Shown here: positions 342 to 42,886 of the stretch, in pieces
How positions within the stretch are numbered: position 1 is the first letter of the stretch
Layout: each line of letters starts with the position of its first letter
Assembly: GCA_000934665.2 (NCBI GenBank)
Contig: JYFJ02003183.1
Coordinates: 1 to 45,341, forward strand
Direction of reading: 5' to 3'
From: Catajapyx aquilonaris
Taxonomy: Eukaryota
Length of the DNA stretch: 45,341 nt
Notes under the pieces: model-generated
Database searches by the model: none
What the model was told of the DNA's origin: nothing
The model's input: only the letters and a program-made list of their open reading frames with translations
Made by a program: the position numbers and the translations under genes

Positions 342-660
342 TCTATACTTTTACTGACTCAGGTTGAGCCACCGATAAGCAAAGGCTGCAGAATAAAGCT
401 GTCATTTTAAGGCGTGTCACTCGCTGGTCCAGACTGCAGCCAGTGCAGTGCTTTGAGTTCGAATCTGACATACAGGTAAATTTATGCAAAAGGTTTGGCA
501 AAACAGGTTCAGGGGGGGTGGAAATCAGCTAATTAGTGTGAAAAAGATGTTACACTGAAGTGATGACCAAGGACATCAGTTGTCCTCATGTAGGTACACT
601 AGAAACGTTGACCACAATTTTTTTCTGACATTTATAATTGCAATGTTTGTTGAATTACAG

Positions 661-741
661 AGTGAAGTTCAGCAGCAGGTCCACTGGTAGCAACAGGTTG
701 GCCCTTGGAAATCTTTCTGCACAAGCAGACGACTCTATCCT
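661..741 (+). other. Non-coding 5' leader mini-exon, cassette 1
   Basis: TTACAG acceptor ends at 660 and GTGAGT donor starts at 742. Homologous exons with both splice sites kept occur at 5509-5590, 12972-13053, 16511-16578 and 32450-32531. Confidence 0.6.
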
Positions 742-2376
742 GTGAGTATAATAATGTTCATTTAATCTACCGGTACCGGTACTGAAATAATAGTCAAAGA
801 AAAATTTTCTTTTCCTAGAAAGAATTTCAACTTCAACAGAATAAACTTCCAAAAATTCTTGTGAAACAGCTATTTTGTGACTTCCAATAGTAGCCTATTA
901 GTGTGTGGCTCAACATACAATTAGTAATTTAATTCTTTATAGTGATGTCACAGGCGCATGGTGGAAGGTGGACTTGAAATCAAAATTCGGCAGATACGTC
1001 TCTTGGCTTAGAATATGTTGGTGGACTTACCCAGAAATCGAATTTTTTGGACTTAACAATAGTATTGATCTCACCCGACGATTTTTAACCTGCGCATAAT
1101 TCTGTAAAAAGTAAAAACGATATCTGATCATATTTAATGGAGTTTATTTTTAAGATGTTGTCACATAATGTCACCTGTATTGCCATTCATGAAACGAGAG
1201 AGGAGACAAGAGTGGTGTCATCATGTTTTTTCACTAGTGAATTCTCGAGTGAAGTACTCTCATTTACTTTATTAGGCTGTGTAAATTGCTTAGTGTAGGT
1301 GTATGAATTTGGTGGCAGATTGCGTCATGTTGCTGTTCCAAACTGATTACAAAAAATCTTTTAAAAAATTGGTGTTTTTAGTATATAGAAAATATTATGT
1401 TACTAATATTTTTAGTTGGAACTTGAATATAACTGCTGGTGTTTGGTTTTGGCCTGAGATTGCTGTAGCTGCATTGCAAAATTGTACTTTTTCAGCCTGT
1501 GTGTATATAAGTAGCCTGGCTTTTTCATCCTAAAATTTTTGGTAGTAAAACTTAATGCACTTCAGCTATTACCACATACACTATGTGCATTAATATAGTG
1601 TATGAAGCACCAGGTCCATTTACAGAAATCATGGCTTATTTTTGCATTTTGTATATGTTACCTAAAGGTAGCGTGGCCGAGTGGTCTAACGTAAGTACTT
1701 ATATGTTGGTCGTTGTTAAGAGCGGTAATCATACAGGACAGGTAACACATATGAAACATTTGCCCTTATGTCAAATCTCCTTATTTCTTTTACCGTTGTG
1801 TTGGCACCAGATAATTATAATTACATGATAATAATCATCATAACAGGTGGACAATATCATACCAACTGAGCATAAATGGAATTATTTGGTAGCTCGATCC
1901 TCTTGGATTTTGATGTAAAATATCATGGATGTTTGTATGAGTGATTGCGTGTATCAAAAACCATGTTTCAGGACTTTCCTACACCGCTGTAGCAAGATTC
2001 GCATAAGTAAAATAAGGCATTAAGTGAAAAAAATTATTGTGCTTGTATTTGGAGTACAGTTGTGACGTTTTATAATCATTACATCCAACATTTCAGCTAG
2101 GTAGTTTCCATGATAATTTGAAGACAATGAGATGTTGACTGTTTTATAGGAACGAAATCAGATAGTGCAAAAAATGTCTTGTAAAGTGAATTCCCTCCAG
2201 ATTTTTCATTTAGGACTTGATCACTCTTCACTGTACTTCACTGTACTTACAGGATAACAAAAGTATCATATTGTTTTGTGCAATACAATTATTATAGTTC
2301 TGGGCAGTGGAAACAGTACATTTATTTAAGACAGTAATTTTTGTTCTTGCCTATTTTCAGAACTGATTGAAAAAAA

Positions 2377-3393
2377 ATGTCTACTGAACATCCAACTGAA
2401 CAACTCACCATAACAGCACAGGTGAAGCCATTTCATTTTAAATGGCCCATTGGAGATTACAAGCTCCATGAAATGGATAAGAAAATAATTAAATCTGATC
2501 TATTCACCATCCGAGGATTGGAGTCAACACAGAAATGGCAGCTGCACCTTCATCCCAAGGGCAATAGGCAATCTAGTGAAGGTCACACCTCTCTCTTCCT
2601 TCATTGTCCTTCTGATACTCATAATTTCCAATTCCCTACCATGTTTTCCCTCAAAATTAAGAGTACCAATGGCAAAAAGGACTACACTCGCAATACTACA
2701 AGGATTCTCACATTTTCCAGGCAAAGTCAGTCTTGGGGCTTTCCTAAATTCATTGAAAACAAAGTCTTGGAAGAGAGAGCTTCTGACCTTCTTCCAAATG
2801 GTAGCCTGACATTGATTTGCACCGGGAATGTCATTTTGGATATAAAGACACCTGAAGTTTGTGGCCGTGGATTGTTTGAAGATGCGAAGTGCATGCGGGA
2901 GTCCCATGCTGGCAGGGGCGTAACTCTGGTGGCAAGTGATGGAACAGAACTTCCAGTGCACAAGTTTATTTTGTGTGCCCGAAGCCCAGTGTTTGCAGCC
3001 ATGTTTGACCACGACACTGAGGAGAAGAAGACAGGAAGGGTTGTCGTCAAGGACGTACGGCCAGATGTTCTGAGAGGCCTCGTTAGTTTCATGTACACTG
3101 ATGAAGCCCCTGAAGATGTGAAGGAATTGGCCATAGAACTGTTGATTGCATCTAATAAGTATCAGATCCCTCGTCTTCTGTATCTAATTGATGAGCATAT
3201 CAGAAACAATTTGACTGTTGAAAAGGTACTGAACATTTTGAACCATGCCATCTTACTTGATTTGCCAACAATGAAGGATGTATGCTTGCAGTTCATCCAG
3301 TCCAATGCAAAGGAAGTCAAAGAGTCTCAGTCTTGGAAGGAATGTGCTGATGTTGATGTCTTGAAGGTCCTTTCTGAATTCTTGCTGAAGTAA
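2377..3393 (+). CDS. MATH-BTB protein (SPOP/roadkill/TDPOZ-like CUL3 adaptor), copy G1, 338 aa, clade A
   Basis: MATH motifs FHFKWPI, WQLHLHPKG, SLFL, SWGFPKFI, LLPNGSLTLIC; BTB motifs VHKFILCARSPVFAAMF and FMYTD; BACK-like tail. Acceptor TTTTCAG ends at 2360, just before the ATG; CDS has no introns. Confidence 0.95.
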   Translation: MSTEHPTEQLTITAQVKPFHFKWPIGDYKLHEMDKKIIKSDLFTIRGLESTQKWQLHLHPKGNRQSSEGHTSLFLHCPSDTHNFQFPTMFSLKIKSTNGKKDYTRNTTRILTFSRQSQSWGFPKFIENKVLEERASDLLPNGSLTLICTGNVILDIKTPEVCGRGLFEDAKCMRESHAGRGVTLVASDGTELPVHKFILCARSPVFAAMFDHDTEEKKTGRVVVKDVRPDVLRGLVSFMYTDEAPEDVKELAIELLIASNKYQIPRLLYLIDEHIRNNLTVEKVLNILNHAILLDLPTMKDVCLQFIQSNAKEVKESQSWKECADVDVLKVLSEFLLK

Positions 3394-4356
3394 TCTACAT
3401 TAGATAGCTTATTGAGATGAAAGTATGTGCAGTTATTTGGTCCTTTTTGTATCTGAGGAATTATTTAATAGGAACTGTCGTATCACTTTCGTACAGTCGT
3501 TAGTCATTTTTTTCATGGTAAGTACGTGATTGTCGCCTTTAAACTGACCCTTTTATGTTTTTTGTTCGAGTAAAACAGAAGTTTGCATGTCACTGCTACT
3601 TCTAGACTGCAGAGAATGGTGGAAGTTAGATTGATAGCTGAGGCAGTGTTGCTTACCGGCATATAAAAGTTTCCAAAATGCAAAATTAGATCACAAAGTT
3701 TATTGCCAATTTCTAGATACACAAATTGGCAGCTTCCTTTTTTATATGTCTTTTTATTTTGGGCACTTATGCAGTCATGCTTCACTTTATTTGTTCGGTT
3801 GCTCTTGATGAAACAGATCAGAGTAAACTCTGATGTATTGTCATTCTGATGTTATCAGATTGTTCCCTTTATTTTATTATCTACCTTGTTTGGTGTTTGG
3901 AGATCTTCAGGAGGGAAGCAACTGGTGGTGCCAAATGTCATTCAGATTTTCCACAAAGAGCTTTCTCAAAAAACATCTTTATTCCATGTTGCACTACATA
4001 ATGCGGTCTGAGAGAGAGTATGTTTTCTAATGCATATGCTCACGGCATGCATTTATTAGTATAGTCTACTTAGTATTTAATGATTGTGTGTGGGTATTTG
4101 GTGAGAATTTTTCTGTTGTTGTCCAGACATGTATTTCTGTTGGAATTTATTCCAACTGAGCTTAATATTTTAAATATTCAGTTCTCCGGTCAGTTTTTAA
4201 ATAGAAAAGGGTTCAAATTGGATTTTTATTTATGTATTAAATTTTATTTTGGACAATGTCTTACCCCCGAGATTAAGCCATCCAAATAAGTATCCCTTTT
4301 CAAACTGTATGCCTATCTAGTGCATTGGAATGTTATCCAGGTCTTATAAGCTATTA

Positions 4357-4890: not shown

Positions 4891-5049
4891 TGTGGAGCCA
4901 CTCTGTAACTTTAGAGCCACCCTGTAGAGGACGCATTGCGACCCACGCTTCTCTGGTTCATTCCGGTCCGTTCCTCCCATCTGGACGACATTTTCTCATC
5001 AACTACTGGCCTGCAAATTTTTCTGTTCCAGTCAGTATTTTAGGTAAGT
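4891..5049 (+). promoter_or_regulatory. Conserved promoter/first-exon block, cassette 2
   Basis: GAGCCACCCTGTAGAGGACGCATTGCGAcCCACGC...CTGGTTCATTCCGGTCCG, with Inr-like TCATTC at 4958-4963 and GTAAGT donor at 5044. The block recurs at 24285 and 42496, and partially at ~9200, ~15860, ~31810 and 37255. Confidence 0.6.
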
Positions 5050-6203
5050 GGAGAAAATTCGAGAGAATTAAGGGGCAGTCTCTGCACGTACATTGTCTCT
5101 TGGACACCCAGATGCCGGCACACCCAGAACTTAGCCTGCAACAATCACTATATCCCATTAGTAACATATTACGTACATAAATGTTGCATCACATGAAAAG
5201 GTGGTGCATTGCATATGATACGTGGAATATTTTCATTTATGAGCAGCTCCACTGGTATGGAACGTAATTTGACAGCTTTCTGCAGTAGAATTATTTTTTT
5301 CTTGTCTAATCAAGAAATATCTTTCTCTGCAGGACATTGCAAACCTGCGTGTTAAGTGTGTGTCGTATGACCAAAATCTCCATAATGCAATATTTTGCCG
5401 CAATGTCATTTTTTTACTGGTGTCATCATGGATGTCTAAAAAACAATTAATTTAATTGTTACGTATTATTTTTATAACCTTCAACATTACAATCTCATTG
5501 CATTACAGATTGTGGTTTAGGCAGAGGTCCAACGGTAACGGCAGATAGGCCCTTGGAAATCTTTCTGTAAATGCTGACAACATTGCATTGGTGAGTATAA
5601 TAGATCTTTAAATTTTTTGGAATGTAATGTAATAGTCCAATCAGATGTTTCTTTTTTTAGACCAAATTAAACTTTGACACTACTTGCGCATTCTCTAAAA
5701 CAATATATTATGATTATTTTTAGTACAATTTCATTTTTTAAGTGTTGTCATGTTGTGCCACTATGATATTGCCATTCATGTCTAGAGAGAAGAGCCAAGA
5801 GTGGTGTCATCATGTTTTATCACTAACAATTATTTAAGCTGTGATTATTGTATGATGCGCAGTTCTACGAATTTGCTGGCAGATTGTGTCCCATTGATGA
5901 AAATTGTTATTTTCCAGCTGGTGTGTAATATAAGTATGGCTAATCACTCATGCAACTAAAAAATACATATGATATAGATGAATTTTACAATAATTTTCAA
6001 ATAGCTTAATTTTTCAGGCGCAGACGAGGAGTTATGCTTATGTTTGGAGTACGGTTGTGGCATTTAATTACCACTTAGTCCAACACAGTCAACGTACACA
6101 GATGTGATCGAAAGCGGAGGGAAAATTGGACAGAGTTATGAAATAATGGGTCAACCCACAAAAATGTCAAAATTGAACCAAGCCCAGGAACATACACCTA
6201 AAG

Positions 6204-7514: not shown

Positions 7515-8532
7515 ATGACTGCCAGACAAAAATTCTTCATGACAGCAGATGTGATGACATTTTGTTTCAATTGGACCATTGAAAATTACAATCCCTATGG
7601 AATGGATGACGAAGTGATTATATCTAATCCATTCACCATCAGTGGATTGGAGTCAACAAAATGGAAACTGGAGCTTTATCCCAATGGCCACAATGATAAG
7701 GATGATGGTCGCATATCTCTTTTCCTTCAATGCTGTTCTGATGTGGATGATTTCCAATTCCCTACCAAATTTTCCCTCACCATTAAGAGTACCAATGACA
7801 AAAAGGACTACACTCGCAATGTTACAAAGATTCGCACATTTTACAAGCAAAGTGAGTCTTGGGGGTTTCCTAAATTCATTGAAAACGAAGTCTTAGAAAA
7901 GAGAGCTTCTGACCTTCTTCCAAATGGTGCCCTGACTTTGATTTGCACAGGGGATCTCATGTTGGATATGGATTGTGAAAAGACAGCTGATGTTCGTGGC
8001 CCTGGATTGCTGGAGGATATGAAGTGCATGCTGGAGTCCCATGTTGGCAGGGATGTAACTCTGGTGGCAAGTGATGGAACAGAACTTCCAGTGCACAAGT
8101 TAATTCTGTGTGCCCGAAGTCCTGTGTTTGCAGCCATGTTTAAGCACGATACTGAGGAGAAGGAGACAGGAAGGGTTGTCATCAAGGACATGCAGCCAGA
8201 TGTCCTGAGAGGCCTCATTACTTTCATGTACAGTGATGAAGCCCCTGAAGATGTGACCGAGCTAGCTGGCCATGGATCTCCTGATTTCATCACACAAGTA
8301 TCAGATCCCACGTCTTCAGTTTCTGTTGGTGAAGCATGTCAGCACCACTTTGATTGTTGAAAATGTACTAAGCATTTTGAGTCATGCCGTCTTACTTGAC
8401 TTGCCAACACTGAAGGATGGGTGCTTGCAGTTCATCAAGTCAAATGTAAATGGGGTGACAGAGAGTCAGTCTTGGAAGGAGTTGGCTGATGTTGATTCCT
8501 TGAAGGCCCTTTTTGAATATGGGATGAAATAG
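7515..8532 (+). pseudogene. MATH-BTB copy G2 with a 4-bp frameshift (clade A)
   Basis: ORFs 7500-8360 and 8272-8532 together give a full paralog of G3. AGCT is duplicated at 8260-8267 relative to G3 (GAGCTGGCC). Likely ATG at 7515, after the acceptor ending at 7499. Confidence 0.85.
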
Positions 8533-8966
8533 TCTGCACTGGATAGATTTTTGAGATGAAAATGTGTGCTATTATGTGGCCCTGTTATGACCTATTGCAA
8601 CACCTGTTGTTGTTTTTTTGGTCCTGTATGAATGAATGAAACTACCCAATCTGCTCTGTTTAGTTTGAGTGTTTATGGCTCTATGCAGTGATGTTTCACA
8701 TAATTTGTTCTCCTGTTGCTTGAGACTCTTTATTGAAATTTTCAAATGTGATTATTTATAATGCTGTGTATCAGGCTGTGGCTAATGGTTATTAAAGATG
8801 GAAATTTCTAACATGTAGTTTTCTTTTGTTACTCGTACATTCAAGATGTAATAACAGTGGAAACCAAAGGGTCAAAGTGTGTGTTTGTAAACCTTCAGGA
8901 GTTAAGCTGGGGCCAAATGACTATCGGATTATGTTATATGGAGTGTTCTCAAAGGGCATCCTTATA

Positions 8967-9152: not shown

Positions 9153-10539
9153 TACTTTAATTTTTTCAGGTAATACGGTACTGTATATTATTCAAGGCCG
9201 ATTCTGGTCCACGCTGGTCCGTTCCTCTGTCTAATTTTCTCTCATCAGGGTGTCCAACTGTAATTATACGGTTGAGTCGAATACGGTGAGGCCTTCTGGG
9301 GTAGGTAATTCTAATTAGCTAATTATGCCTCAATGCTACAAAATTGCGGAATGCTAAAAAGGTGCATGCATTAAGCTATCCAATGTGAATATTTTGCGCT
9401 GCTCAGGGGACTCCCCTCTCCCCACTCTTGACTGATGGACCTTGTTCTTTGTCAACTCTCTCAAGGTTACTCCTGGGCATGGTGGAAAGAGAAAGCTCCT
9501 GGCCCCTGGGCAAGCGAAAAGGATACTGGCTGAAAAAAAGGCAGGCATTTTTTGGGTGTGTCCGGGAGTCAGTATTTTAGGTAAGGGGAGAAAATTCTAG
9601 AGAATTAAGGGCCGTCTGCACGTACATTGTCTCTGGGACACCCAGATGCCCACCCAGAACTTAGCCTGTAACGACCACCATTAGCACATATTACGTACAT
9701 ATGTTGCATCACATGCATATGCATATGCATTGCATACGATACGTTAGTGGGGGGCTCTTAGGGTCCAAATTCGACCAGATGGGGACAGGTTGGACAAAAG
9801 CACCATATTTTTTCTGTGGAATCTGTATTGCTTACGCTTTAGATTTTTGGTAGGATGATCCACGTGATCAAGACAATGGATCATGAGTTATATATATGAG
9901 TCATTATCCATGTGACCGTGTCAGCCGGTGGATACTTCTTCAATTGTTGATACTACCGCATTACAAATAACAATAAATAGTTCCCCGCAAACTACTCATG
10001 TTATTTAAGTGTTATTTAAGTGTTACTTAACATAAGCCGCACAGGGGGTCGATCAGGTGTATGATCAGTGTGCATGAATGTAATGGTAATTGTATGGGGC
10101 ATTCTGCGTCAATGGGGCTACCCGTTATTGCCATGACCTTTTCAGGTTTTGGTCGTATTGAAGTATATTGTAGTACCAACAGACCGGTTTGCGTAACCGA
10201 GTTTGTTTCTCGGTACGACGAGTGGTTATGAAACTACAGGCTGCCAAATGTGCCAATTTTGCTCCATAAGCATCTGTAAGCTGTTACTTGGAGGGCAACT
10301 CCCAGAGGAACAGTTAATTCCTAAACTTTGTGTGCATTTGAAAGGTAATTTCACTCCTTATGAGATGGTTATACTTGTAATTAAGAAGACAAAAAAATTT
10401 AAATAAAAATGATGGTCAAAAAATGTATTATTTTGATGTTGATCATTAATGGACCTCTGCGATTTATTTTTAACAGCACTTAAAATGATAAGTGAAATGT
10501 TTACTTGGGATTCCGCAAAATCTGGAGAACCCCTGTTCC

Positions 10540-11770
10540 CTGATTCAAGAACTCTACCGAGGTAACAATAAATACTGATGTCAGTGGCCGAGTAAAATGA
10601 TAAATTGCATGAAGTTAAAAGAGATTCCCATTTTAATGGGCTTCTCAGTGAGGAAGGTGCAAGTTTCAGAATCTTTCTTGTCGTGTATGGATGGCCAAAA
10701 AAATTATCCCATGGCTGAGTGATTGATTGGATATTTGTCGATCCAGAAATAATATTACAGCTGCCACTTCAGCATTTACGTAACTGTTATTAAGCAACAA
10801 TATGATAAAATGTTCTCTTTAAAACCGCTGACCATACGAACTTGACGTGTGGACAGTTGCCAATCCAGGGACACATGCGACAATAATGGTATTTTGGAAT
10901 GATGTTGTATATGTCGTATTTTGTGTTGGGCAGTTTATCAGGGTTCATTGTTGAACACAAGAATGGACTAACTGTGTACATAGGTGGATGGAGCAACATG
11001 AAGATTCTTCCATAGGCCTCCAGCTATGAGCATGCCTTTCTCTCTTGTGTCCAACAATGAACCCCGATAAACCGCCCTACGCGAAATGCATCATTCCAAA
11101 ACACCTTCGTTATATATATGTCCCTGGAGCAGTAACAACCCAAGCACGTGTTACGATGCTCAGAGATTTTGAAGAGAGCATCTATCATATTGTTGCTTAA
11201 TAACAATTAAGTAAGTGCTGAAATAGCAACTCTAATATTATTTCTGGATCTACAAATATCGGTACCCATTAAATCGCTGAGATACTTGACAATTTTATTG
11301 GGCATCCATAAATGACACGAAAAATTCTGAAACTTGCTTCTTCAGAAGCTCTTAAAAATTGTGGTCTCTTAATTAATTTAATGTGATTTATCTTATTACT
11401 CAATGACATCGGTATTCTGTGCCTGGCTGTTGGACTGGAAGGTCACAAGAGTGGTTGTTCCAACCCCATCATGGCTCAACACCGTCGCCTAGGAGACATC
11501 TGTCAACAAGCACCCCCTGGTGAGATAGAGTCTTCCTGGGTGTTTCTGGTTGTTTACATCGCCATCAACAATCCATTCTGTGCCTGGCTGTTGGACTGGA
11601 AGGTCACAAGAGTGGTTGTTCCATCCCCAACATGGCTCAACACCGTCGCCTAGGAGACATCTGTCATCGCTGGTAACCCCATCTTGATGGGAATATGCCG
11701 TGAATGAATGTATGTATGTATGTATGTACATCGGTATTTATTGTTAACTCGGTCGAGTTCTTGAATCAGG
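10540..11770. mobile_element. Fold-back element with ~270-bp imperfect TIRs, nested in 9745-12663
   Basis: 10540-10810 is an inverted match to 11180-11416 plus 11739-11770 (CTGATTCAAGAACTC / GAGTTCTTGAATCAG). Confidence 0.7.
11417..11727 (+). mobile_element. 5'-truncated non-LTR retroelement/SINE 3' end
   Basis: 11-bp TSD ACATCGGTATT (11406-11416 and 11728-11738), a (TGAA)(TGTA)n tail, and an internal ~90-bp direct duplication (11417-11505 vs 11578-11667). Confidence 0.75.
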
Positions 11771-12120
11771 CTTTCTCTCATTATCATATGTACGTGGTAG
11801 GCATTTATTTATTTTTAGAGCAACAATATTATTTTGTGAAATTTTGTTGCCAATTTACGGGATTTCTAGGTTTGGCGCACAAAATGCTTTTGATATTTGG
11901 CAGATATCGAATTTCTGATCTCCAGATTTGGCAGCAATCTCAAGCAAACATTTCCCGTATTATTTGAAACGCCATTCAAAATCAGTAGTAGGGGTCGATT
12001 AATGAGTAATATAAAAATTTTGGGAACCATTTTGAATTTAAATTTTGGATTTTCTTGTGCATATGTATGACCATCTCATAGAAAGTGAAAATACCTTTCA
12101 AATGCACACATTAAATTTAA

Positions 12121-12276
12121 CCCTGTAATGCCACTAATCTAAGTAATGCCCACTGGGTCATATCTGGCCCACCATTTAGTGCAATTTTTGCAACTTTTGC
12201 AATTTTTATATTTCCTGTAAGTGTGCCAAATTGCACTAAATGGTGTGCCTGATATGACCCAAGGGGCATTACAGGG
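12121..12276. mobile_element. piggyBac-type MITE
   Basis: TTAA|CCCTGTAATGCC...GGCATTACAGGG|TTAA, with internal inverted symmetry. Confidence 0.8.
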
Positions 12277-14081
12277 TTAAGATTAAACCTGATCTTGTGG
12301 TCCTCCGAAGTAACAGCATATATGGGTCAAAAATGCTAGAAAATGGGCACATGTGACACCCTGTAGTGTCGAAACCAAGCATCGTACACATAAACTCGGT
12401 TGCATAAACCCATATATGGGCACTACAACATACCCAAATATGGTCAAAATCGGAGAAGGTTGTGTGGCCAAGGGCGGTCCCTTTGACGCGGAATCCCCCT
12501 TTGCGCAGGGCGATTTCTGAGAAAATGTCACGTGACAGGACCCATGTACACTGATCGCGTGGATCCTACCAAAAATTATTAGCATAGGTCCAAACAAAAC
12601 TCCAAGCAAAGTTTGGTGCTTTTGTCCAACTTGTCCCCTTCATCTCGCTAAGAGCCCCCACTATGTGGAATATTTTCATTTATGAGCAGCTCCACTGGTA
12701 TGGAACGTAATTTGACAGCTTTCTGCCCAGCTTTCTGTAGTATAATTATTTTTTTCTTGTCTAATCAAGAAATATATCTTCCTCTGCAGGATTATTGCAA
12801 ACCTGCGTTAAAGCAATAAGCGCGTGTCCTAAGACCAAAATCTCCATAATGCAATATTTTACCGCAATGTCATTTTTTTACTGGTGTTATCTTGGATGTC
12901 TAAACAACAATTAATTTAATTGTTATGTAATTTTTATAACCTTCAGCATTACAATGCTCGTTGCATTACAGATTGTGGTGTAGGCAGAAGTCCAACGGTA
13001 ACGGCAGATAGGCCATTGGAAATCTTTCTGTAAAAGCTGACAACACTGCATTGGTGAGTATAATTAATCTTTAAATTTTTTTTGAATGTAATGTAGTAAT
13101 AGTCCAATCAGATATTTCTTTTTTTAGACAGAATTAAACTTCGATGACACTACTTGTGCATTCTCTAAAACAATATATAATTATTTTTAATACAAGTTCC
13201 TTTTTAAAGTGTTGTCATATTGTGCCATTGCCATTCATGTGTAGAGAGAAGAGCCAAGAGTGGTGTCATCATGTTTTATCACTAACACAATATATTCTCA
13301 TCTAATTAATTAAGCTGTGTATATTGTATGATGCAGTTCTACGAATTTGCTGGCAGATTGTGTCCCATTGATGAAAATTGTTATTTTACAGCTGGTGTGT
13401 AATATAAGTGTGGCTAATCATTCATGCAACACAAAAATACATATGATTTAAATGAATTTTACAATAATTTTCAAATAGATTAATTTTTCAGGCGCAGACG
13501 AAGAGTTATGCTTATGTTTGGAGTATGGTTGTGGTATTTAATTAGCACTATGTCCAACATTATTTTCAGCTAGATCGTTCCTAGAGTAATTTGATTATGC
13601 TGAGATGCTGCCTGTTTTCTAGGAAAGAATCCCGAAGAATCCACATTGCCAAATATCATGTAAAGTTTGACTTCCCAGCCCTAGATTTTCCATGTGGGTT
13701 TAGATCGAGCTTTGATTTAGTTACACCCATTGAGGCATCTCTTCAGGACATTACATTTATGAGACTTACAATACAATAGCAATTACAATACAATTATCTC
13801 ACATTTCACCATAATTATTATGACAAGATACTCATACATAGAGGAATCAAAATTGTCATAATTTGAGTACCGTAATTATGTCTACCCATGCAGCACAGTT
13901 CAGAATGCATAACTAACACATATGAGTTTGTAGTCCTGTTGAGCTCATTTTAATTTTCTTAAGGTTGAACTTATATAAGATGCTTTGTATGAAATCTAAT
14001 TACACCATTATTATTCCTCTACAGGGTTCATAATACTTCAGAACACACTTTTTGGTCTTGCTGTTGAATGCTGGGAAAAAA

Positions 14082-28619: not shown

Positions 28620-28806
28620 TAGTTACACTGGGACGTGATGAGTGGATTGCAAAGACAAGGTTGTGAACTAGGGTGTAAGCACTATCTTGCTAGACCAGAT
28701 TTGGCCACAGCTTTAATCCACCTGTAAGTGCGCCTTTGGGATGGGTTTCCGACCATGGGTGTCCTATCTCAAATTGCTTTCCTAGGCAGCCCCTAACATC
28801 CTAGTA

Positions 28807-29561: not shown

Positions 29562-29664
29562 TAGTTAGCATCATAGTAACCCATATTTAATTTTCCTACT
29601 AAAGGAATATCAAACAAATGTCGCTTTGCCAATTAGAGACACCAATTTTACAATTACTGTTAGT

Positions 29665-29985: not shown

Positions 29986-30259
29986 TGACAAAACGTCTTC
30001 ACCTGTATATGGAGTGGAACCCAAATTGTCGTAATTATAGTAAGTGTACCTGTGCAACAGAGCTCAATACATGAAAATTACAGATGTAATCTTCTTGGGC
30101 TCATTTTAATTTTCTTATGGTTGAACCTATGGTTGAACTTAAGGTAGATTCTACATATGAAAGATAATGACAGCATTATTATTTCTGTGCAGTGGAAGTA
30201 ATGCATTTGTTTCAGAAAGTAATAATTTTTTTGTTCCTGCTTTCCACAGGTTGGTAAAA

Positions 30260-30788: not shown

Positions 30789-31475
30789 GCAGGGCAGCTG
30801 ACCATTTTCACCTCCTGTTCACTCCACGTCTATCCTATGTTTGTTTTTTAGTTTTTTTTTTACTGGGAGCAGTTCACTTGCTGTTTTTTTGGTACTTTGT
30901 AATATGTAACTGTATAACTTCTGTTCATTGGATTGGGTGTTGATGTGTTTCACTTAAATCGTTCTCCGCTGACTTGAGGCTCATAAGGAGTGACCTTTAT
31001 TTGTCCTTCTGATTTTAATCGTATTTTTCTCCTTTTTTGTTATGTACTACCCAATTTGGTGTGTTTAGACCTTCAGTGAGGAAGTAATAGTCTGCTTTGG
31101 TAAATTGTCATTCAGATTTTTTATGTGGAACTTTCTCAAAGGACATAACTTTACTCCATGCTGCACTACATAATGTGGTGTGAGAGAGTTTTGTAATGCA
31201 TATGTTCACGGCGTATATCAGTACTTTTTTTAATTTTGTATTTATTTGGTGGCATTTTTTCTGTTATTTTCCAGGCGTGCATATTTCTGTTGGAATTTAT
31301 TCCAAATGCACTTAGCCTTCACGCAACTATTCAGTATTTGGATCTACATTCGTAGAAGAAAAGAGTTGAAGTTGCTTGGAATTTATGATTTTTGTATTCA
31401 TTTTTATTTTTGAGAGTGTGTTTTCAAACTTTGTCTAGTCAGTGGACTTTTAAATTTCCACAATCTGTACACCCC

Positions 31476-31481: not shown

Positions 31482-33434
31482 AATATTGAACTGATCCAAA
31501 GTACCAAATGTCAGTACAAACGACCTTTTTTTTTTACAATGAAAGGGAGAGCATCAAACAGACGGAAGATGCTAAGTGTCATTTTAAATGCAGGTGTTCA
31601 TAGCTGTATGCTTACTGACACCTGTGTCTGATGATGTGCTACAAAAAACTTCCAATTAAATTTAAATACAATTAAAATAATTATGTACAGTTGCAAGTCA
31701 TGATAATTATTATCAGGTAAAGCAGAATCCTATTATTATCATGGAAAATATCCTTACCCCGTAGATTCACCAGCAAATTCCAAAACTGTTCCTCATCGAC
31801 AATTCAACATTCCTGGTCAGTTTCTCCTTCTCATTCCCTCTCATCAGGGTGTCCAACTGTGATGAAACTATTAGTTCGAATACTATACAAATATCAGGAC
31901 ATAATTATGTGTAGGTGATTTTAATTAGGCAAAAAATATGGCTCGCTACCGTATTACGAAATCATAAAAATGTAGTGTACATTCTTTAAGCCATCCTACG
32001 GGGATTCCCCACTCATAATATGAGTTCTGCATGGACTTGTTTTTGTCTCAAGGTTTTACTACTGCGCATAAAGCAGTGAAGCACTGGCAGAAAACACAGG
32101 CCCAGGCATTTTAAGGCGTGTCACTCGCTGGATGCAGACTGCGGCCAATGTTTGGAGTTGGAATCTGGCATACATGAAGGTAAGTTTAGGCAAAACATGC
32201 AAAAGGTTTTTCACAAAAGGTGTAAATGAAAAAAAAAGTGCTAATTAGTGTGAATTTTATGCTGAGGTGATGACCAGTACATTATTCTGTGGTCACCTAC
32301 TGTACGCTAGAAAAGTTGAGTAAATGTTCATGAGATTTGAAGACACTAATTATTGTCATCATCGTCGTTGGAATGAATGTGTGGTGTTTAATTTATTGGT
32401 TACATAATTTTTATGATACTCTGCATTACAATGCTTTGTTGCATTACAGATTGTGGTTTAGCAGTGGTCCAGGTAGTAGCAACAAATTGGCCGTAGGAAA
32501 GCTTTTCGCAAGTACAGACGACTCGATCCTGGTGAGTATAAATAATAATCTTTAAACTTACCGTACTCAAATAATATAGTCAAATCACATTTTCATTACT
32601 CGAGAAATAAATTAAATTTCAACATAACCTGTGCATTAGCAGTACTGTACGTGATTATCTAAAACAATAGCTGATAATTAAGGGTTAATAGGAGTTCACT
32701 TTTCAAACTGTTTGTGCCACTGGCATTGCCATTTGTATCCAGAGAGAGGAGCCAAGGGTGGTGTCATCATATTTTATCACTAGTACAGTATACATACGGT
32801 GATCTAGTTTATTATGCTGTAATTATTGTATGGTATTGCAGTGTGAATATGTTGGCAGATTGTCTCCCATTGCTGTTCCACATACAGGGTGCTCCGACAA
32901 GGAAGAAAAACTTTCATTGCAGAAATGAATCAAATGATTAATATTTTTCTTTGTTGCACTAAAAATGTTTTTACTTATTTTTGTATTTGAATCCGAAAAG
33001 TTACTGCTGGTCTTTGCACACGAATAGCCTGAGACTGCAAAAGTAGCATCGAAAAATTGCAGGCTTATTATTTTTTCAGACTGTGCTGTGTGTAAGTATG
33101 GCTTTTCCTGTACTTAAAAATATTACGAATGATACATAATAATGTACCCCTGTAATTACCACATACACTGTGCATGAAACATCCAAATATTGTCTGGAGA
33201 CGTAAAAACAACGTGTACCACAAGCATGTTGTTTGTCACATATACTCATTGTCAGTGGGGACTGGTAGAATATGCATATATGTTACGTTAGTACAGTACA
33301 ACTGAATTGTCTTTGCTTGTTGAAACACTACTGGATGAACGTAGGGTACTGTACTCTATAATTATAAGCATGGGTCTTCATTGCCAGACCGATCCAAATA
33401 TCTGACATTTAATCATTTGCCTGTAATTCAATGG

Positions 33435-34063: not shown

Positions 34064-35086
34064 ATGACTGAACCACAAGGTCAGCACAATGTCACATCTC
34101 CAGAAGTGCAGCCAATCTTCTTCCAGTGGTCCATCAAGAAGTACAGCTTTTTTAAAACTCGAGCTAAGATTAGCTCTGGTCCGTTTACCATTGGTGATTC
34201 TATGACTCCCACCACATGGATGATTGATATCTTCGGCCAAGATGGTACTAGGCAGTATCTGATGGCATACCTGACTTACCTTCCACTTCACAAAACTGCA
34301 GAAGATTTCCCAATAAAAGCCAGATTTACTCTCAGCATTCAGAGCGAATTGGAGAAAGTTTTTTCTTTGGATTCAGAGCTGGTCGAATTTTCTGCAGGTA
34401 ATTTGACCCATGGAGGTAATGTTATAACCTTCACAGACTTGGAAGCTAATGAAGCAGCCCTGCTTCCAAATGATACCCTCACTGTTACTTGCAAAGGAGA
34501 GATTATGTGTGGGTTTCGCAGTGAGCCCCAAGAGGTTCCTATTATTGAGATTGCTGCTCCTGTATTATCCACTGACATGAAGCATCTCTTGAAATCCGGC
34601 AGAGGTAGCGATGTGAAGTTGATGGCAGAAGAATCTGCATTTCCTGTTCACAAGGCCATTTTGATTGCTCGTAGCCCTGTGTTTGCGGCCATGTTTGAAC
34701 ATGACACCCTGGAGAATGAGACAGGAGAAGTAGTTATCAAGGATGTGAAGCCACAAGTGCTGGAGAATCTGATCTACTTCCTCTACACTGACGAGGCACC
34801 CCAAGATCTCCCGGAAATAGCCACGGAGCTTGCTGCAGCTGCACAGAAGTACATGCTTCCTCGCCTCCAGTCAATGTGTGAGAATCGCCTTGCAAATTCT
34901 CTCACAGTGGACAACGTTATTGACGTGATTGGTGCATGCCTGTTCTGCAACTACTCAAACAAACTGAAGAAGACTTGCTTGCGGTTTGCCAAGTCACACT
35001 TGAAGGAGGTGCAAGAAAGCGAGTCCTGGAAAGCAGGTGCCCCTGGGGAAGTCGTCAAAACTCTTTTTGAGTTCTGCCATGTGTAA
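34064..35086 (+). CDS. MATH-BTB protein, copy G6, 340 aa, clade B
   Basis: Intact paralog of G4/G7 with VHKAILIARSPVFAAMF and FLYTD. Acceptor ends at 34049. Confidence 0.93.
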   Translation: MTEPQGQHNVTSPEVQPIFFQWSIKKYSFFKTRAKISSGPFTIGDSMTPTTWMIDIFGQDGTRQYLMAYLTYLPLHKTAEDFPIKARFTLSIQSELEKVFSLDSELVEFSAGNLTHGGNVITFTDLEANEAALLPNDTLTVTCKGEIMCGFRSEPQEVPIIEIAAPVLSTDMKHLLKSGRGSDVKLMAEESAFPVHKAILIARSPVFAAMFEHDTLENETGEVVIKDVKPQVLENLIYFLYTDEAPQDLPEIATELAAAAQKYMLPRLQSMCENRLANSLTVDNVIDVIGACLFCNYSNKLKKTCLRFAKSHLKEVQESESWKAGAPGEVVKTLFEFCHV

Positions 35087-35694
35087 AATCTCACATGTCA
35101 CCTTGATGCTGAAGATCTCGTGTTGGCTCAAGGCAATAACTTTGCACAGTTTTCTGAGTATTTTCTTGTGAGGTGGAATGTGGAAAGGAGTACTAGATAA
35201 ACCCAGAAAACCATGCAAACTTATCTTGGACCCACTCCATGGATACTAGCAGGCATGAGGTTAGTGTAATCTCTTAAATATGTCATTTTGATGTTATTCA
35301 GATTTTTCTCCATTTAAGTTTGTTATTTACTACCTCATTATGTTTGTAGACCTTCAGTTGTGGGAAAGCAACTGTCGTTGCCAAAAATGTTATTCAGATT
35401 TTCTTTCTTCATTCCATGATATACACATAATGTGGCGTGTGAGACAAGTAAGTAATGCATATGCTCACTGCATTTATTATTTCTTGTATCATTATTTGGT
35501 GATAATTTTTCTGTTATTGTGTAGACCAGCATTTATGTTGGGATCTATTCCAAATGACTTTGATATTTACAAAACTTCAGTTACAGTTCAATATTCAGAT
35601 TAATTTGTAATCTAAAATAGTTCAAGTTGTTTGCATTTTTTCGACATACACATTAGATGAAGCCATCTGATTGAGTGTCCTTTACCAAACTACT

Positions 35695-35715
35695 TGTGTG
35701 TGTGTGTGTGTGTGT
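35695..35715. repeat. (TG)n microsatellite
   Basis: About 10 TG units. Confidence 0.9.
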
Positions 35716-37254: not shown

Positions 37255-37660
37255 CTGGTTCATACCGGTGATTCTGTTGGCAATAATATTGTTCCTCATG
37301 AAGTTGTGTGAGGCAGAGAGAGAGAGATACAGAGCAATAATTTATTCTAATTTACAAGAAAGAGATAAAGCCAGATTGGATTTATTATAAATGTTATTTG
37401 TGCGCCATCCAATGAGCGATTGTGTGGGGAATTCCCTGTGATAAGTTTTTTTTTCCATCTTCTTTTTTCTTTTTTCTTCTTGCTGCATGAATATGAGTGT
37501 TGAGGATTGCACAATATAGACGAAACAGAAAAGACGTACCCGTCCAGGCCACCAAGCTTGCAGGAGAAAGAGGTGACAAAATTCTCGGCTCATTATTGTC
37601 TGCTGGGCAGCCAACATCTTATCCAGTTAAAGCAGGTTAAAGTCACTGTTTTGGGTAAGT
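37255..37660 (+). promoter_or_regulatory. Promoter remnant/first exon of cassette 7
   Basis: CTGGTTCATACCGGT, TTTATTCTAATTTACA and TGCGCCATCCAATG are shared with 42549-42886. GTAAGT donor at 37655 is followed by the same intron start as at 5044 and 24436. Confidence 0.55.
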
Positions 37661-38151
37661 GGAGAATATAAGTTCAGAGAATGAAGGGCAATATCGGTAT
37701 GCTTAATTTTGTCTGGTGGGTGGGCATCAAGCTCGTAGACTACAACTTACTATCCAGTATTTACCATCATGGTGTAGGTCAATAATGTGTGCGCGCAAGT
37801 AATCCATGTTTTATTTCGTCCCATTTTTGGTGTCAACTTACTGTACTGTACCACTTCGTTATTAACCCAGATATGCCCGGAAAAGTTTTTGTTGAATTTT
37901 TGAACTTTCTTTGTTTCTATTAGTTCATATTAGTTCCTGTGCAAAACACAAAAATCGAGATAAAACATTTTTCTGAACTCTTATTGTTTGCGAGAAAATG
38001 GCCATTCCCTATAATTACGGGATGCTAGGAAAATGTAACCTTATAGTATGGTAATTGTGTAGACTGGTGTAGATATGTAGATTGACCCAATCATAATAAT
38101 TAGTGAGTGGGCGGAGACGGATATTATAGGCAACTCTTCTGTTTCCTGCAG

Positions 38152-38731
38152 TGAACCTACAGCAAACTTCAAGAAGATTATGCCAAAGTTATGGCAGCAT
38201 TATTGTTATGGTGTGCCCGAGTGGGGCGAGTTGCCTGATAGTCCTTTGGCCAACTCCGCCATTCTCAAACCAAAAACCCCATCTGCCCTGCCCAAGTCAA
38301 CCACAGGCGGAGGGGGGCAAGACAGAGGGGCCCTCTCACAGCAGGCACATCACTCAGGAGGAGGCTGGCGCCAAAATCCCCTGGACCAAATTCCAATATG
38401 GCAGGTGTGCTGATGTGTTAACACATCAGCACACCTGCCATCCTGAAATGTGGTTTCTCCAACCAGGGACCATCATTGCCTGCAGCAGTCGTGATGCAGA
38501 CAGAGCCTCCAAATCATATCAAACAGGCCACCGTGGACAAATCAAAGGAGGTAAGGGCCAAGGACAAGAACCCCAACAAAGAGGAGGTGGTGAAGAAGAG
38601 TGAGGAACATCTGCTGGACAACAAAAAACCTGAGGAATCCCTCATCACCTGCTTCCGGGAGCTCACGGTTCCTGAGAGGCTCATACCAGATGTGCTCACT
38701 TTCATTAGGAGCAAGACACCTGGTAAGAGTG
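38152..38731 (+). CDS. eIF4G2: eIF4G2/DAP5/NAT1-like gene fragment (MIF4G-MA3 linker and MA3 start), two exons
   Basis: Exons 38152-38404 and 38467-38722/38731 joined by a 62-nt phase-0 GT-AG intron. Peptide ..NFKKI..PLANSAILKPKTP..EPP..IKQATVDK..KDKNPNKEEVVKK..FRELTVPERLIPDVL resembles eIF4G2 (PRFSKK..SLRPA..PSKEELLK..VREMRAPKHFLPEML) from recall. The fragment may be non-functional. Confidence 0.6.
38398..38441. repeat. Perfect 44-bp palindrome
   Basis: ATGGCAGGTGTGCTGATGTGTT|AACACATCAGCACACCTGCCAT is self-complementary with no spacer. Confidence 0.95.
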
Positions 38732-40037: not shown

Positions 40038-41075
40038 ATGGCTGAGCCACTTGGACAGCACATTGTCACTACTTCAGAAGTGCAGCCAATTTTCTTCCAG
40101 TGGTCTATCCAGAACTACATCTTTTTCAAAACTAGAGCTAAGATTAGCTCTGATCCATTCACCACTGGTGATTCTGTGACTCCTACGAGTCCTACCACAT
40201 GGATGATTGAAATTATTGGCCAAAGTAGTAATAGGCAGAGCCTTGGGGCAAACCTGACTTACCTTCCACGTCGCAAACCTGCAGATGATTTCCCAATAAA
40301 AGCCAGATTTACTCTCAGGATTGAGAGCGAATTAAAGAAAGTTTTCGCTTGGGATTCAGGGCTGGTTGAGTTTTCTGCAGATAAATTGACTCATGGCGGT
40401 GATCTTATAACCTTCACAGACTTGGAAGCTAATGAAGCAGCCCTGCTTCCAAATGATACCCTCACCATTGCTTGCAAAGGAAAGATTATGTGTGGATTTC
40501 GCAGTGGGCCCCAAGAGGCTCCTATTGACATTGAGATTGATGGTCCTGGATTATCCACCGACATTAAGAATCTCTTCAAGTCTAGCATAGGTAGCGATAT
40601 GAAGTTGATGGCAGGAGAATTTGCGATTCCTGTTCACAAGGTCATTTTGATTGCTCGGAGCCCTCCGTTTGAAGCCATGTTTGAAGAAGACACACCAGAG
40701 AATAATGCAAGTGCAGTAGTTATCATCAAGGATGTGAAGCCAGAGGTACTGGAAAGTCTGATTTACTTCTTGTACACTGATGAACCACCCCCAGCTCTGC
40801 CCAAAATGACCTTGGAGCTTGCTGCAGCTGCACAAAGGTATATGCTTCCCCGCCTCCAGTTGATGTGTGAGAAGCACCTTGCAAATACTCTCACCGTAGA
40901 CAATGTTATTGACACGTTGGGTGCTTGCCTTACCTGCAACTACTCTAACAAACTGAAGGAGGCCTGCTTGCAGTTTGCCAAGTCAAACTTGAATGAGGTA
41001 AAAGGAAGCGAGTCCTGGAAAGCAGGCCCCGCTGTGGAAGTTGTCACTGCTCTTTTTGAGTTCTGTACTGTGTAG
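40038..41075 (+). CDS. MATH-BTB protein, copy G7, 345 aa, clade B
   Basis: Intact paralog of G4/G6. Acceptor ends at 40023; ATG at 40038 by alignment. Confidence 0.92.
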   Translation: MAEPLGQHIVTTSEVQPIFFQWSIQNYIFFKTRAKISSDPFTTGDSVTPTSPTTWMIEIIGQSSNRQSLGANLTYLPRRKPADDFPIKARFTLRIESELKKVFAWDSGLVEFSADKLTHGGDLITFTDLEANEAALLPNDTLTIACKGKIMCGFRSGPQEAPIDIEIDGPGLSTDIKNLFKSSIGSDMKLMAGEFAIPVHKVILIARSPPFEAMFEEDTPENNASAVVIIKDVKPEVLESLIYFLYTDEPPPALPKMTLELAAAAQRYMLPRLQLMCEKHLANTLTVDNVIDTLGACLTCNYSNKLKEACLQFAKSNLNEVKGSESWKAGPAVEVVTALFEFCTV

Positions 41076-41800
41076 CATGACATCTAGACGAGTTGGCTCA
41101 AGGCAAGTTTGTGTTTGGTCTGCTGTATGTTTTTTTCCATCCTTCCTTTTGTGGTGAAGTGTGGACAGGAGGGCTGGAAAAACACAGAAAGCCATGCAAA
41201 CTTAACTTGTGAGATGGCACTATACAGATTCCAGCAGGTCAGTGTGATCTCTAATTGTCATTTTGATGTTCATTCAGAGTTTTCTTCTTATTTTTGCGTT
41301 ATTAACTACCCCACTAGGTATTGTAGACCTTACGTTTGGAAGAAACTGTTGGGGACGTATGTCATTCAGATGTAATGTATGCTGGAGATCTCTCAAGGGA
41401 CATTTTTATTCCATGCTGCTTACATAATTTTGTGTGAGTCTTACATAATGCAAATGCTCACTCCCTATATATTAGTGGTCTACTTATTTTGATTTTGTGT
41501 TTTTTTTAGGTGAGAATTTTACAGTCATTGTCCAGACATGCATTTCTGGTGGACTTTATTCCAAATGAGGTAATTAATTTTCAGTTTTTCACTAATGTTC
41601 GGTATTCAGGTCAATTATAGTAGGAATTTGTTACAGTTGCTTATTTTTTCCCTTTTAATTTTAATTTTGCACCTCCCTGTCTTACACATGAGATTAAGCT
41701 ATATCCAAAACAGTGTCCTTTTCCAAATATTGTATGTCTCTCCACTGGATTTTTAAGTGTCGACTAGCATGCAGTACCCTCCAGCTAGCTGCTAGATCAT

Positions 41801-41806
41801 AATAAA
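41801..41806 (+). terminator. Putative polyadenylation signal of G7
   Basis: AATAAAGTTACTGAACTGATCCAAAACAGT, conserved context. Confidence 0.6.
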
Positions 41807-42495
41807 GTTACTGAACTGATCCAAAACAGTAGGCTACTACTTAGTTGTTTGTCTGTCATAATAAACAACTAGTTACCTATGCGGATACAGCAGCAAACAC
41901 ATGCGACTAGTGATTTTAAGAGCGATGACATCGCTGAGTAACCGGAGTAACCAATATTGTTTGAGGCGAAAGAACGCTCTTCCTCAAGCAATACTGGTCA
42001 CTTGGGTTACTGAGCAATGTGATAGCTAGTCAATAAATCACTCACGTGTAAACACGGCTATATAAGGTGGCTAAGATGCTAAGGGACATTCTAAGTGCCG
42101 GAGATTAAAATTGCATATATGTGCTCCCTCGTCCATGTATAAACTGGATATAGTGTCATACATTGATCATCAATCAATAATCTTTTTTTTTGTGGACTAT
42201 AATACTATCACCACATCCTGTTTGTAACGTTATTGTGTCGCATGAGTTTCAGAATCGAGATTAAATGAAAGTCTGGCAGAATAAGCTCCAATTTCTAGGC
42301 AATTTCTTTTGAGCAGGACTACCTGTCGGCGCTGTCGCCTAATCTTGAAACCTGTCGAGGAGTTATAGATACACCGGATACACCAGTGGAAACCTCATTT
42401 AGCGAGCGTCAAATATTTATACGTAATACCACTGCCCTCCGATTGTGAAGGCGAGGCGAAAGTTCGCAAAAATATCCCGTCACTAAGGACCATAA

Positions 42496-42886
42496 TGTGA
42501 GCCACCCTGTAGAGGACGCATTCTGATCCACGCCTCACTCGTAGTCACTGGTTCATTCCGGTCCGTCCTTCATCCGCATTCCGTCAGTCCAGGTGTTCCC
42601 AACTGTGATTCTGTTGGCACCGGTGCAGTGATGCAACGTGATTATATTTATTCTAATTTACAGTAAGTAAAATAATCACGGATTTGGATCACACTTAAAA
42701 TGAATGTCATTCTGCGCCATCCAATGGGAATATTTTCAGTTGATTGCAGGGATGACTCAAAGCGTCAAAGGCCTCTGCCGCGTCACTCACTTTCCCTTCA
42801 AGCAGGCTGAAAAGTGGACAAAGAGGAAACAATCCGACTGGCCACGCAACTTATCCTAGATTCAGTCAGTGTTTTATTGGGTAAGT
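42496..42886 (+). promoter_or_regulatory. Promoter/first-exon block of an eighth cassette (cargo not in window)
   Basis: TGTGAGCCACCCTGTAGAGGACGCATTCTGATCCACGC...CTGGTTCATTCCGGTCCG, with GTAAGT donor at 42881. Confidence 0.6.

Follow-up and report, generated by a model that had tools for sequence, protein, structure and literature searches.

A probable lineage-specific tandem cluster of SPOP-derived MATH-BTB genes in Catajapyx aquilonaris, with an intact MEP-1 gene behind the family's putative leader module

How do coding exons of quite different age and kind come to lie behind the same putative promoters and leader exons, and before the same 3' tails, in one short piece of a genome? The question is raised by contig JYFJ02003183.1 of the Catajapyx aquilonaris assembly GCA_000934665.2, of which positions 1 to 45,341 of the forward strand (45,341 nucleotides (nt), hereafter the window) were analysed. 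An original prediction, made from the same letters, had described an array of head-to-tail units with homologous flanks, in which seven units end in a MATH-BTB exon and two hold intron-containing pieces of the host genes MEP-1 and eIF4G2. We consider it likely that the window holds SPOP-derived MATH-BTB genes in a tandem cluster that is specific to this lineage and has since been reshuffled, and that MEP-1 lies inside this cluster and shares its leader module. Each gene would carry the whole coding sequence in a single 3'-terminal exon, after one or two short non-coding leader exons and with a shared block for the 3' untranslated region (UTR) and poly(A) signal on its 3' side. The cluster would have grown by head-to-tail segmental duplication and its parts would later have been exchanged and lost through recombination of the unequal, non-allelic kind, through gene conversion and through deletions, and the promoter-side modules (P1, P2, E1A, E1B, E2) and the tail module (U3) would now stand recombined with two deeply diverged types of coding exon. 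The intact MEP-1 gene would have a copy of the P1-E1B module as its 5' leader and a decayed MATH-BTB exon with U3 behind it, and the eIF4G2-like piece would be a single exon duplicate left lying in unit G's first intron. Since the coding exons are intronless, the MATH-BTB founder may have been a retrogene. It is from the letters of the window that we infer the role of the blocks as transcribed exons and promoters, the recombination history and the CUL3 adaptor function of the proteins.

Modules, coding exons and their divergence

The window is eukaryotic DNA with a G+C content of 35-48%, and its split genes all lie on one strand. A self dot-plot had been proposed as a check of the array, and the comparison of the window with itself gave 26 families of direct repeats and 50 self-BLAST matches, many of them with expect values (E) below 1e-20 and the block homologies well in excess of chance. 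The non-coding self-matches were sorted into seven blocks, named P1, P2, E1A, E1B, E2, I2 and U3, and a profile of each block was scanned across the window with nhmmer, by which every copy and little besides was found: three copies of P1, five of E1B, three of P2 with one remnant, three of E1A, four of E2 and four of I2 with one remnant each, and five of U3 together with remnants in units B and C. On these profiles eight units (A to H) were mapped, all on the + strand, head-to-tail and 4.3-8.4 kb in length, in agreement with the predicted number of at least eight. The predicted sharing of promoter and first-exon blocks is likewise seen, but the first-exon blocks form two classes, E1A in three units and E1B in five, which have no visible alignment with one another and are linked only via the upstream blocks P1 and P2 and via the hybrid unit C, in which P2 is fused to E1B. 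The extra block P2 is placed between the P1 remnant and exon 1 in units C, D, F and H (the order in unit H being P1, P2 remnant, E1B) and is missing from unit B and from the MEP-1 unit.

We take the splice and poly(A) signals of the blocks to be genuine, since the signal dinucleotides are invariant while the adjacent columns vary. All seven of the first-exon donors that had been named as GTAAG-type do carry GT at the exact base; six read GTAAG, and the one at 476 reads GTAAA. In the five-copy alignment of E1B, the longest invariant run is G|GTAAG. The leader exons also proved to be there, in the form of a conserved 81-nt exon within E2 that is complete in four units; its TTACAG acceptor and GTGAGTATAA donor are invariant in all four complete copies, at a mean column identity of 77%. 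Before the coding exons, an AG acceptor is found 8-25 nt 5' of the ATG in six cases out of seven, the exception being unit C, where this AG is gone and an upstream TTCAG is retained. Behind them, AATAAA stands in a conserved context 3' of U3 in units A, D, E, F and G, as had been predicted for the 3'UTR blocks.

All seven predicted MATH-BTB exons are present, each with its coding part free of introns, but only five are open, as single open reading frames (ORFs) of 337-347 amino acids (aa). The exon of unit B is broken within BTB by a 4-nt insertion near 8256-8262, with its ORF ending at 8360, and that of unit E is a truncated pseudogene with several frameshifts and the BTB half deleted. One frameshifted and one decayed copy fit a birth-and-death turnover. 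The six long ORFs align colinearly, and all six exceed the Pfam cut-off for BTB (E 3.7e-18 to 1.8e-24); MATH_2 is above its cut-off in units A, B and C (71.6-88.9 bits; in unit A, E is 1e-19 for MATH_2 and 4.3e-23 for BTB), below it in units D and G (24.2 and 26.3 bits, respectively), and not listed for unit F at E<=0.01. In a search of PDB, residues 12-322 of the unit C protein matched residues 27-340 of the human SPOP chain at E 5.7e-38, the MATH domain included, and the BACK_BPM_SPOP family, at 17 bits in units C and G, stays under its cut-off of 27.4, while the alignment of protein C with SPOP extends to residue 340. The proteins are presumed CUL3 substrate adaptors. In the word-indexed search, protein C found only two proteins at E<=0.001 among 1,177 candidates, with 27-29% identity, by which measure the MATH-BTB family of this array is an isolated one.

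The coding exons belong to two subfamilies, the first made up of A, B, C and E and the second of D, F and G, with about 35% amino-acid identity between them. Within the first, the protein of unit A is 62-67% identical to those of B and C, and by self-BLAST the pseudogene of unit E shares 77% identity with B, 73% with C and 71% with A. The description of the adaptors as fast-evolving is borne out by a ratio of nonsynonymous to synonymous change (dN/dS, omega) of about 1 in the MATH part (about 0.9-1.4 in subfamily 1) against about 0.4-0.6 in the BTB part; the pairwise values for MATH are 1.03-1.41 among A, B and C and 0.48-0.88 among D, F and G, and those for BTB 0.41-0.77. The bootstrap intervals for MATH include 1, so that the values above 1 lack significance and only fast or relaxed evolution, not positive selection, is claimed for this part. 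The residues W-G-F, aligned with the 'DWGF' stretch of SPOP whose W131 and F133 we take to be residues of the substrate groove, are kept in A, B and C; in D, F and G the W and F are replaced by C/H and G, which makes a degron binding of the SPOP type doubtful for these three units.

The divergence of the modules from one another is uneven. At four-fold degenerate sites the coding exons are 75-84% identical within subfamilies (divergence K 0.18-0.31) and 31-44% identical between them (K 1.03-1.85, near saturation, with 50-56 sites per pair). U3, in turn, is 68-77% identical in all ten pairs over 250-480 aligned bases (K 0.28-0.41), against 43-46% in shuffled controls, and its divergence is alike irrespective of subfamily; the original claim of the same flanks around different cargo is supported by these values. 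For E2-I2, K is 0.36-0.39 between unit F and units A, B and C, 0.06 between B and C, and 0.57 for both A-B and A-C, while the four-fold K of the coding exons of A and C is 0.20. From the comparison of flank K with four-fold K, the flanks should share a far more recent ancestor, or be under far stronger constraint, than the coding exons. Units B and C are, moreover, 98% identical over 8264-8563 and 14827-15126 (300 nt at the 3' end of the coding exon), whereas the other long B-C repeat blocks listed are about 86-90% identical; this stretch, at whose 5' edge the frameshifting insertion of unit B lies, looks like a gene-conversion tract. Such a patchwork is as expected where unequal recombination and gene conversion have acted again and again on a tandem array.

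Several observations weigh against the cluster reading in its simple form. Between the two subfamilies, divergence of the flanks is 3-4 times lower than that of the synonymous coding sites, for which simple duplication alone is insufficient and some flank homogenisation, exon replacement or constraint is required. The intron just upstream of the coding exons cannot be aligned between A and B or C, though the four-fold K of these coding exons is about 0.2, and extra turnover or block-wise exchange must therefore be assumed. Finally, in unit D the orthologous E1A donor reads GC and both E2 splice sites are lost, yet the coding exon is still intact, which implies that the 5' modules may be dispensable for expression; unit D perhaps uses another start site.

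MEP-1 and the direction of leader transfer

MEP-1 had been predicted as a captured piece of a host gene; its identity holds, and the piece has turned out to be a predicted complete gene. The ORF at 24634-26985 (783 codons) found 446 proteins at E<=0.001 among 2,847 candidates, with the best at 3.7e-94; the matches listed are 43-64% identical in the zinc-finger half, which was the part searched, they include insect MEP-1, and a large share of them bear the name MEP-1 or 'MOG interacting and ectopic P-granules protein 1'. With six homologs of 1,027-1,336 aa as tblastn queries, the gene was followed colinearly through 28514, corresponding to residues 354-1060 of a 1,073-aa insect protein, and thus colinearly to the C-terminus with the C-terminal C2H2 fingers included. 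The spliced model of the gene (24640-28619, + strand) is open from the ATG at 24640 to the stop at 28617-28619, with about 1,080 aa in four coding exons and provisional introns at 26976-27548, 27805-27907 and 28160-28220, the second of which has a weak donor. By its predicted structure MEP-1 is a complete conserved gene and not a captured fragment.

The acceptor of the first coding exon of MEP-1 ends at 24639, and the block E1B (24409-24500, with its GTAAG donor at 24436) lies about 200 nt upstream, with P1 (24281-24380) just before it, both on the + strand and directly upstream of the gene. This putative leader is homologous to those of the MATH-BTB units B, H, C and G, and since they share the P1-E1B module, MEP-1 and several of the adaptor genes are probably driven by homologous promoters. 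The body of MEP-1 sits where units B and C carry E2-I2. Directly downstream follow the pseudogene exon of unit E (subfamily 1, 30156-30848, found by self-BLAST and alignment) and its U3 (30990-31414, AATAAA at 31476), again on the + strand; in the interval 28620-30085 the pseudogene has no leader exons that belong to it. Within P1, an 85-nt core is 82-90% identical between unit B and MEP-1 over 4918-4997 and only 25-68% identical on both sides; with identity that peaks at the core and drops on the flanks, P1 would be either constrained or recently converted. The string TTCCGG, which may be an ETS-type site, is common to the P1 copies of MEP-1, B and H. A CCAAT box as a shared motif of P1 was dropped, as ATTGG occurs only in the MEP-1 copy and not in B or H. 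The P1 core was also compared with metagenome contigs, where ten exact 18-mer matches, all to unrelated and mostly G+C-rich contigs, were taken as chance; only one of them (L008) could be extended, to 20-31 nt. Between the MEP-1 stop and pseudogene E (28800-29560), CCGGTAT and ATACCGG strings occur in both orientations, at about 28830-28870 and 29465-29490, and are possibly the ends of a small inverted-repeat element.

The alternative that survives best is a directional version of the cluster reading, which we regard as possible, though not as the more probable course: P1-E1B would have served from the first as promoter and leader of an ancestral MEP-1 present in single copy, downstream of which an intronless MATH-BTB founder landed and was spliced from MEP-1 exon 1, unit E being the relic or a descendant of this founder, and duplications with the MEP-1 body deleted would then have distributed copies of this leader over the array. 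MEP-1 is an old and intact gene that can never have been without a promoter, the conservation peak over the P1 core resembles the constraint on a working promoter, and a MATH-BTB exon with U3 does stand directly 3' of MEP-1 without leader exons. Intronless coding exons, furthermore, suit retrogenes, which must borrow promoters according to the available text of PMC2724483. However, the presence of P2 in units C, D, F and H is explained with equal parsimony by one insertion or by one deletion, and unit E falls inside subfamily 1 and is not basal to both subfamilies. On account of that equal fit of one P2 insertion or one deletion, the transfer may have run either way in the cluster reading: either the MATH-BTB founders borrowed the promoter of MEP-1, or a MATH-BTB promoter moved before a copy of MEP-1, and the leaderless decayed exon E with its U3 behind MEP-1 fits both directions.

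The eIF4G2-like piece and the weaker alternatives

The second host gene of the original prediction, an intron-containing piece of eIF4G2, is reduced to a single exon-sized fragment at 38152-38722 (+ strand) in the intron of unit G, with no intron demonstrable within it by tblastn in the window. An exhaustive search of 1.84 billion representatives gave one match, the protein P0123 (E 2.3e-5, 42% identity), in which MA3 is found exactly at the Pfam cut-off of 23.2 bits and whose best solved relative is human eIF4G2 (3l6a, E 4.7e-12), with PDCD4 behind it at 4e-4. As the sole link runs through P0123, the identity is transitive, and the eIF4G2 identification holds only weakly. Homology could be demonstrated by tblastn for 38470-38697 only, which is about 80 aa of the linker and the start of MA3, the other part of MA3 being absent from the window. 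Other searches with the fragment were negative: phmmer against PDB gave no match at E<=1, the word-indexed search of longer proteins none among 52 candidates, and ESM Atlas no usable match. Among ten ORFs around 35.7-39.6 kb, Pfam at E<=1 named no relevant family, its listings of SAWADEE and YgaP-like_TM being both far below cut-off; MIF4G, MA3 and W2 were found by Pfam neither in these ten ORFs nor in 60 ORFs of at least 75 aa elsewhere in the window. A second eIF4G2-like copy at 36.1-36.3 kb, proposed from two collinear 15-mers, was rejected when blastn and tblastx gave no significant match.

The fragment stands between a polypyrimidine-AG acceptor (38151) and a GTAAGA donor (38723), and for this reason has the look of a single genomic exon that was copied together with its splice sites. 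A palindrome at 38385-38454, with 35-nt arms that are 89% complementary and no spacer, is placed exactly at a frame switch in the exon and may be the scar of an inverted duplication. If the exon were spliced to the coding exon of unit G, the ATG at 38494 would be in frame with the MATH-BTB ORF and a protein of 426 aa would result; an in-frame joining is expected by chance in one case out of three, and there are several ATGs upstream. The piece is best described as a fragment of an eIF4G2-type gene and not as a member of that gene family; most probably it is inert, or no more than an exon of the 5'UTR, and may be simply intronic debris.

In the explanation first offered for this locus, a fixed cassette of promoter, leader and 3'UTR acts as a promoter trap that has repeatedly gained foreign cargo (MATH-BTB exons of two types unrelated to each other, a paralog of MEP-1 and an exon of eIF4G2) and forms a co-expressed module, perhaps one of germline conflict or genome defence. 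We find this explanation unlikely, and a little more so its full form, in which the cassette took up the MATH-BTB types, the whole of MEP-1 and the eIF4G2 exon, unit G encodes the 426-aa chimera and the module could serve in germline or transposon conflict. It would account for the same flank modules around cargo whose synonymous sites are saturated, and for the MEP-1 body in the place of E2-I2, with the downstream MATH-BTB exon decayed as expected of an exon that is by-passed; the eIF4G2-like exon, too, retains both splice signals and would be in frame from ATG 38494. However, no terminal repeats were found around the cargo segments and no mechanism of capture is visible, MEP-1 is full-length, conserved and no fragment, and in unit D it is the cassette parts that have decayed while the cargo is intact; as for the eIF4G2-like exon, the palindrome breaks it at the frame switch, and its reading frame has the one-in-three chance already mentioned. 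Were the explanation true, a Mi-2 partner would be wired to the same promoter as a set of diversifying degradation adaptors, and the protein of unit G would be a chimera with an N-terminal extension derived from eIF4G2.

Improbable as well is an explanation in which the flanks are similar owing to purifying selection, acting on the regulatory sequence of the 5' and 3' UTRs of two ancient paralog lineages, and not owing to a recent exchange or replacement of cargo. It can appeal to the splice signals and the P1 core, which are clearly better conserved than their surroundings, and to the AATAAA context conserved in five units. On the other hand, identity along U3 is fairly even and not gathered in conserved islands within saturated sequence, the intron block I2 is also common to units, and U3 is as diverged within subfamily 2 as between the subfamilies, which fits a neutral decay from one recent flank. 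That the units are mis-assembled copies of fewer real genes is very improbable: tandem arrays are prone to mis-assembly and the 4-nt frameshift of unit B could be a sequencing error, but the copies differ by 10-40% and carry unit-specific insertions, which is too diverged for collapse or expansion, there are no runs of N, and the longest identical block is a stretch of 74 nt (direct-repeat family D19).

Unit layout, known parallels and significance

All features of the units that follow lie on the + strand. Unit A begins with the first-exon block E1A at 390-611 (nhmmer E 1.7e-60, aligned with units D and F, GTAAA donor at 476), followed by E2 at 602-801, in which the putative non-coding leader exon 2 takes 661-741 between the invariant acceptor and donor, and by the intron block I2 at 1114-1340; the intact coding exon of subfamily 1 (2377-3393, 338 aa, acceptor at about 2360) and U3 (3823-4325, nhmmer E 1.2e-134, AATAAA at 4690) complete it. 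A string at 1669-1692 in the intron of this unit resembles the 5' half of a tRNA; ARAGORN calls no tRNA in the window, and no Rfam family reaches its gathering threshold there. Unit B has P1 at 4907-5004, E1B at 5020-5110 (GTAAG donor at 5044), E2 at 5448-5647 and I2 at 5697-5899 (both by nhmmer and the alignment of splice signals), the frameshifted exon of subfamily 1 from 7515 to about 8575, as aligned with units A and C, and a U3 remnant at 8881-8965.

In unit C, P2 (9199-9562) is joined to E1B (9558-9644, GTAAG donor at 9581), and E2 (12912-13114) and I2 (13167-13373) were again placed by nhmmer and the splice-signal alignment; the intact coding exon of subfamily 1, with its Pfam and SPOP matches, encodes 337 aa at 14082-15095, and a U3 remnant lies at 15525-15609. 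About 2.9 kb of the first intron of this unit (9744-12662) are absent from that of unit B and contain an inverted pair (10329-10528 and 11919-12110, 73%) and a direct repeat (11414-11505 and 11575-11666, 92 nt, 98%), on which grounds the insert is probably a transposon insertion. Unit D consists of P2 at 15858-16199, E1A at 16170-16399, a decayed E2 remnant at 16469-16588, the intact coding exon of subfamily 2 at 21823-22866 (347 aa, by Pfam and alignment) and U3 at 23063-23322 with AATAAA at 23853. Its 5.5-kb intron holds a foldback-type inverted repeat at 20132-21465, with arms of about 600 nt (20132-20735 and 20860-21465) that are 90-94% complementary, and upstream of it, at 17420-19707, are more nested inverted repeats; the ORFs of the foldback have no Pfam match.

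After MEP-1 and pseudogene E, unit F carries P2 at 31801-32121, E1A at 32091-32319 (GTAAG donor at 32180), E2 at 32389-32591 and I2 at 32661-32880 (by nhmmer and the splice-signal alignment), the intact coding exon of subfamily 2 at 34064-35086 (340 aa, by alignment and Pfam BTB) and U3 at 35266-35696 with AATAAA at 35767. Unit G has E1B at 37631-37719 (GTAAG donor at 37655), the intact coding exon of subfamily 2 at 40038-41075 (345 aa, with the acceptor ending at 40023) and U3 at 41244-41750 with AATAAA at 41801. Of unit H, P1 (42492-42577), the P2 remnant (42557-42744) and E1B (42851-42945, GTAAG donor at 42881) are seen, the cargo being past the window end. Downstream of this first exon, after a long (TAT)n run at about 44040-44125, a 272-codon ORF at 44380-45198 with the families HTH_29 and HTH_32 is transposase-like and possibly of Tc1/mariner type; when 60 further ORFs of at least 75 aa (from 111 found) were scanned, Pfam matches were obtained only in this transposase-like ORF (44380-45195).

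The closest known system is the rodent Tdpoz/Rtdpoz retrogene cluster. As described in the available text of PMC2724483, these are SPOP-related TRAF/MATH-POZ/BTB genes on rat 2q34 and mouse chromosome 3 with the coding sequence uninterrupted in the 3'-terminal exon; the Rtdpoz genes have two or three short non-coding 5' exons, a shared leader exon and duplicated exon 'cassettes', their clusters multiplied by segmental duplication, foreign sequence exonised in the 5'UTR creates upstream ORFs, and expression is in testis and embryo (PMC2724483). The array resembles this system, so far as the latter is described there, in the uninterrupted MATH-BTB coding exon, the putative non-coding 5' exons, the clustering and the duplicated modules. 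However, the origin of the array should be independent, with protein C finding only its two distant database proteins; its units each have their own copy of the leader, in two classes, as against the one unique exon 1a given for Tdpoz in the same text; and they are compact (4-8 kb), with a gene foreign to the family, MEP-1, bearing the same leader module. Comparable, too, are chimeric young genes assembled from adjacent genes, such as Drosophila Sdic, in which promoter or leader sequence of one gene was joined to the body of another and the chimera was amplified in tandem; in the array the sharing concerns non-coding leaders only, with no chimeric coding sequence demonstrated.

Expansions of MATH-BTB genes with a fast-evolving MATH and a conserved BTB are also described for C. 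elegans (BATH) and the grasses in the available text of PMC4091423 and PMC6883508. The array shares with them, to the extent of these descriptions, the tandem expansion and the faster MATH, and differs in lineage and in that its omega above 1 is not significant. For an expanded MATH-BTB family, fast evolution of MATH was reportedly also found by Thomas in 2006 (Genome Res 16:1017). To our knowledge, flank modules common to diverged coding exons and to MEP-1 are not a feature of the BATH and grass families. With SPOP, whose architecture is MATH, BTB and 3-box/BACK, the match is colinear over SPOP residues 27-340 and W-G-F is kept in subfamily 1, but the array proteins have about 30% identity to it or less and a coding exon without introns. 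MEP-1 is a zinc-finger partner of Mi-2 (dMec/MEC complex) with a role in piRNA-guided silencing, as given in the available text of PMC2965115 and PMC7272611; compared with its homologs, the protein of the window is ordinary, and it is the genomic setting that is unusual, with a leader homologous to those of the neighbouring MATH-BTB genes. A plant MATH-BTB protein is described as interacting with eIF3 and eIF4A subunits in the available text of PMC6883508, which for the eIF4G2 piece may be a remote lead and is not evidence.

The locus is thus of a known kind, the lineage-specific MATH-BTB tandem cluster, and what sets it apart is the presence of a conserved chromatin regulator with the family's leader module and the mosaic build. 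Lineage-specific expansions of MATH-BTB genes are thought to follow fast-changing targets, and this array would be an independent and compact example in which the histories of the modules can be read. MEP-1 with the leader module of young adaptor genes offers a concrete case for the acquisition of promoters by new, probably retro-derived genes, and it also bears on the question of whether, through a shared promoter, the expression of such genes becomes tied to that of an essential neighbour. Should the units prove to be co-expressed, the array would lend itself naturally to the study of promoter borrowing; otherwise, it would be an ordinary birth-and-death cluster.

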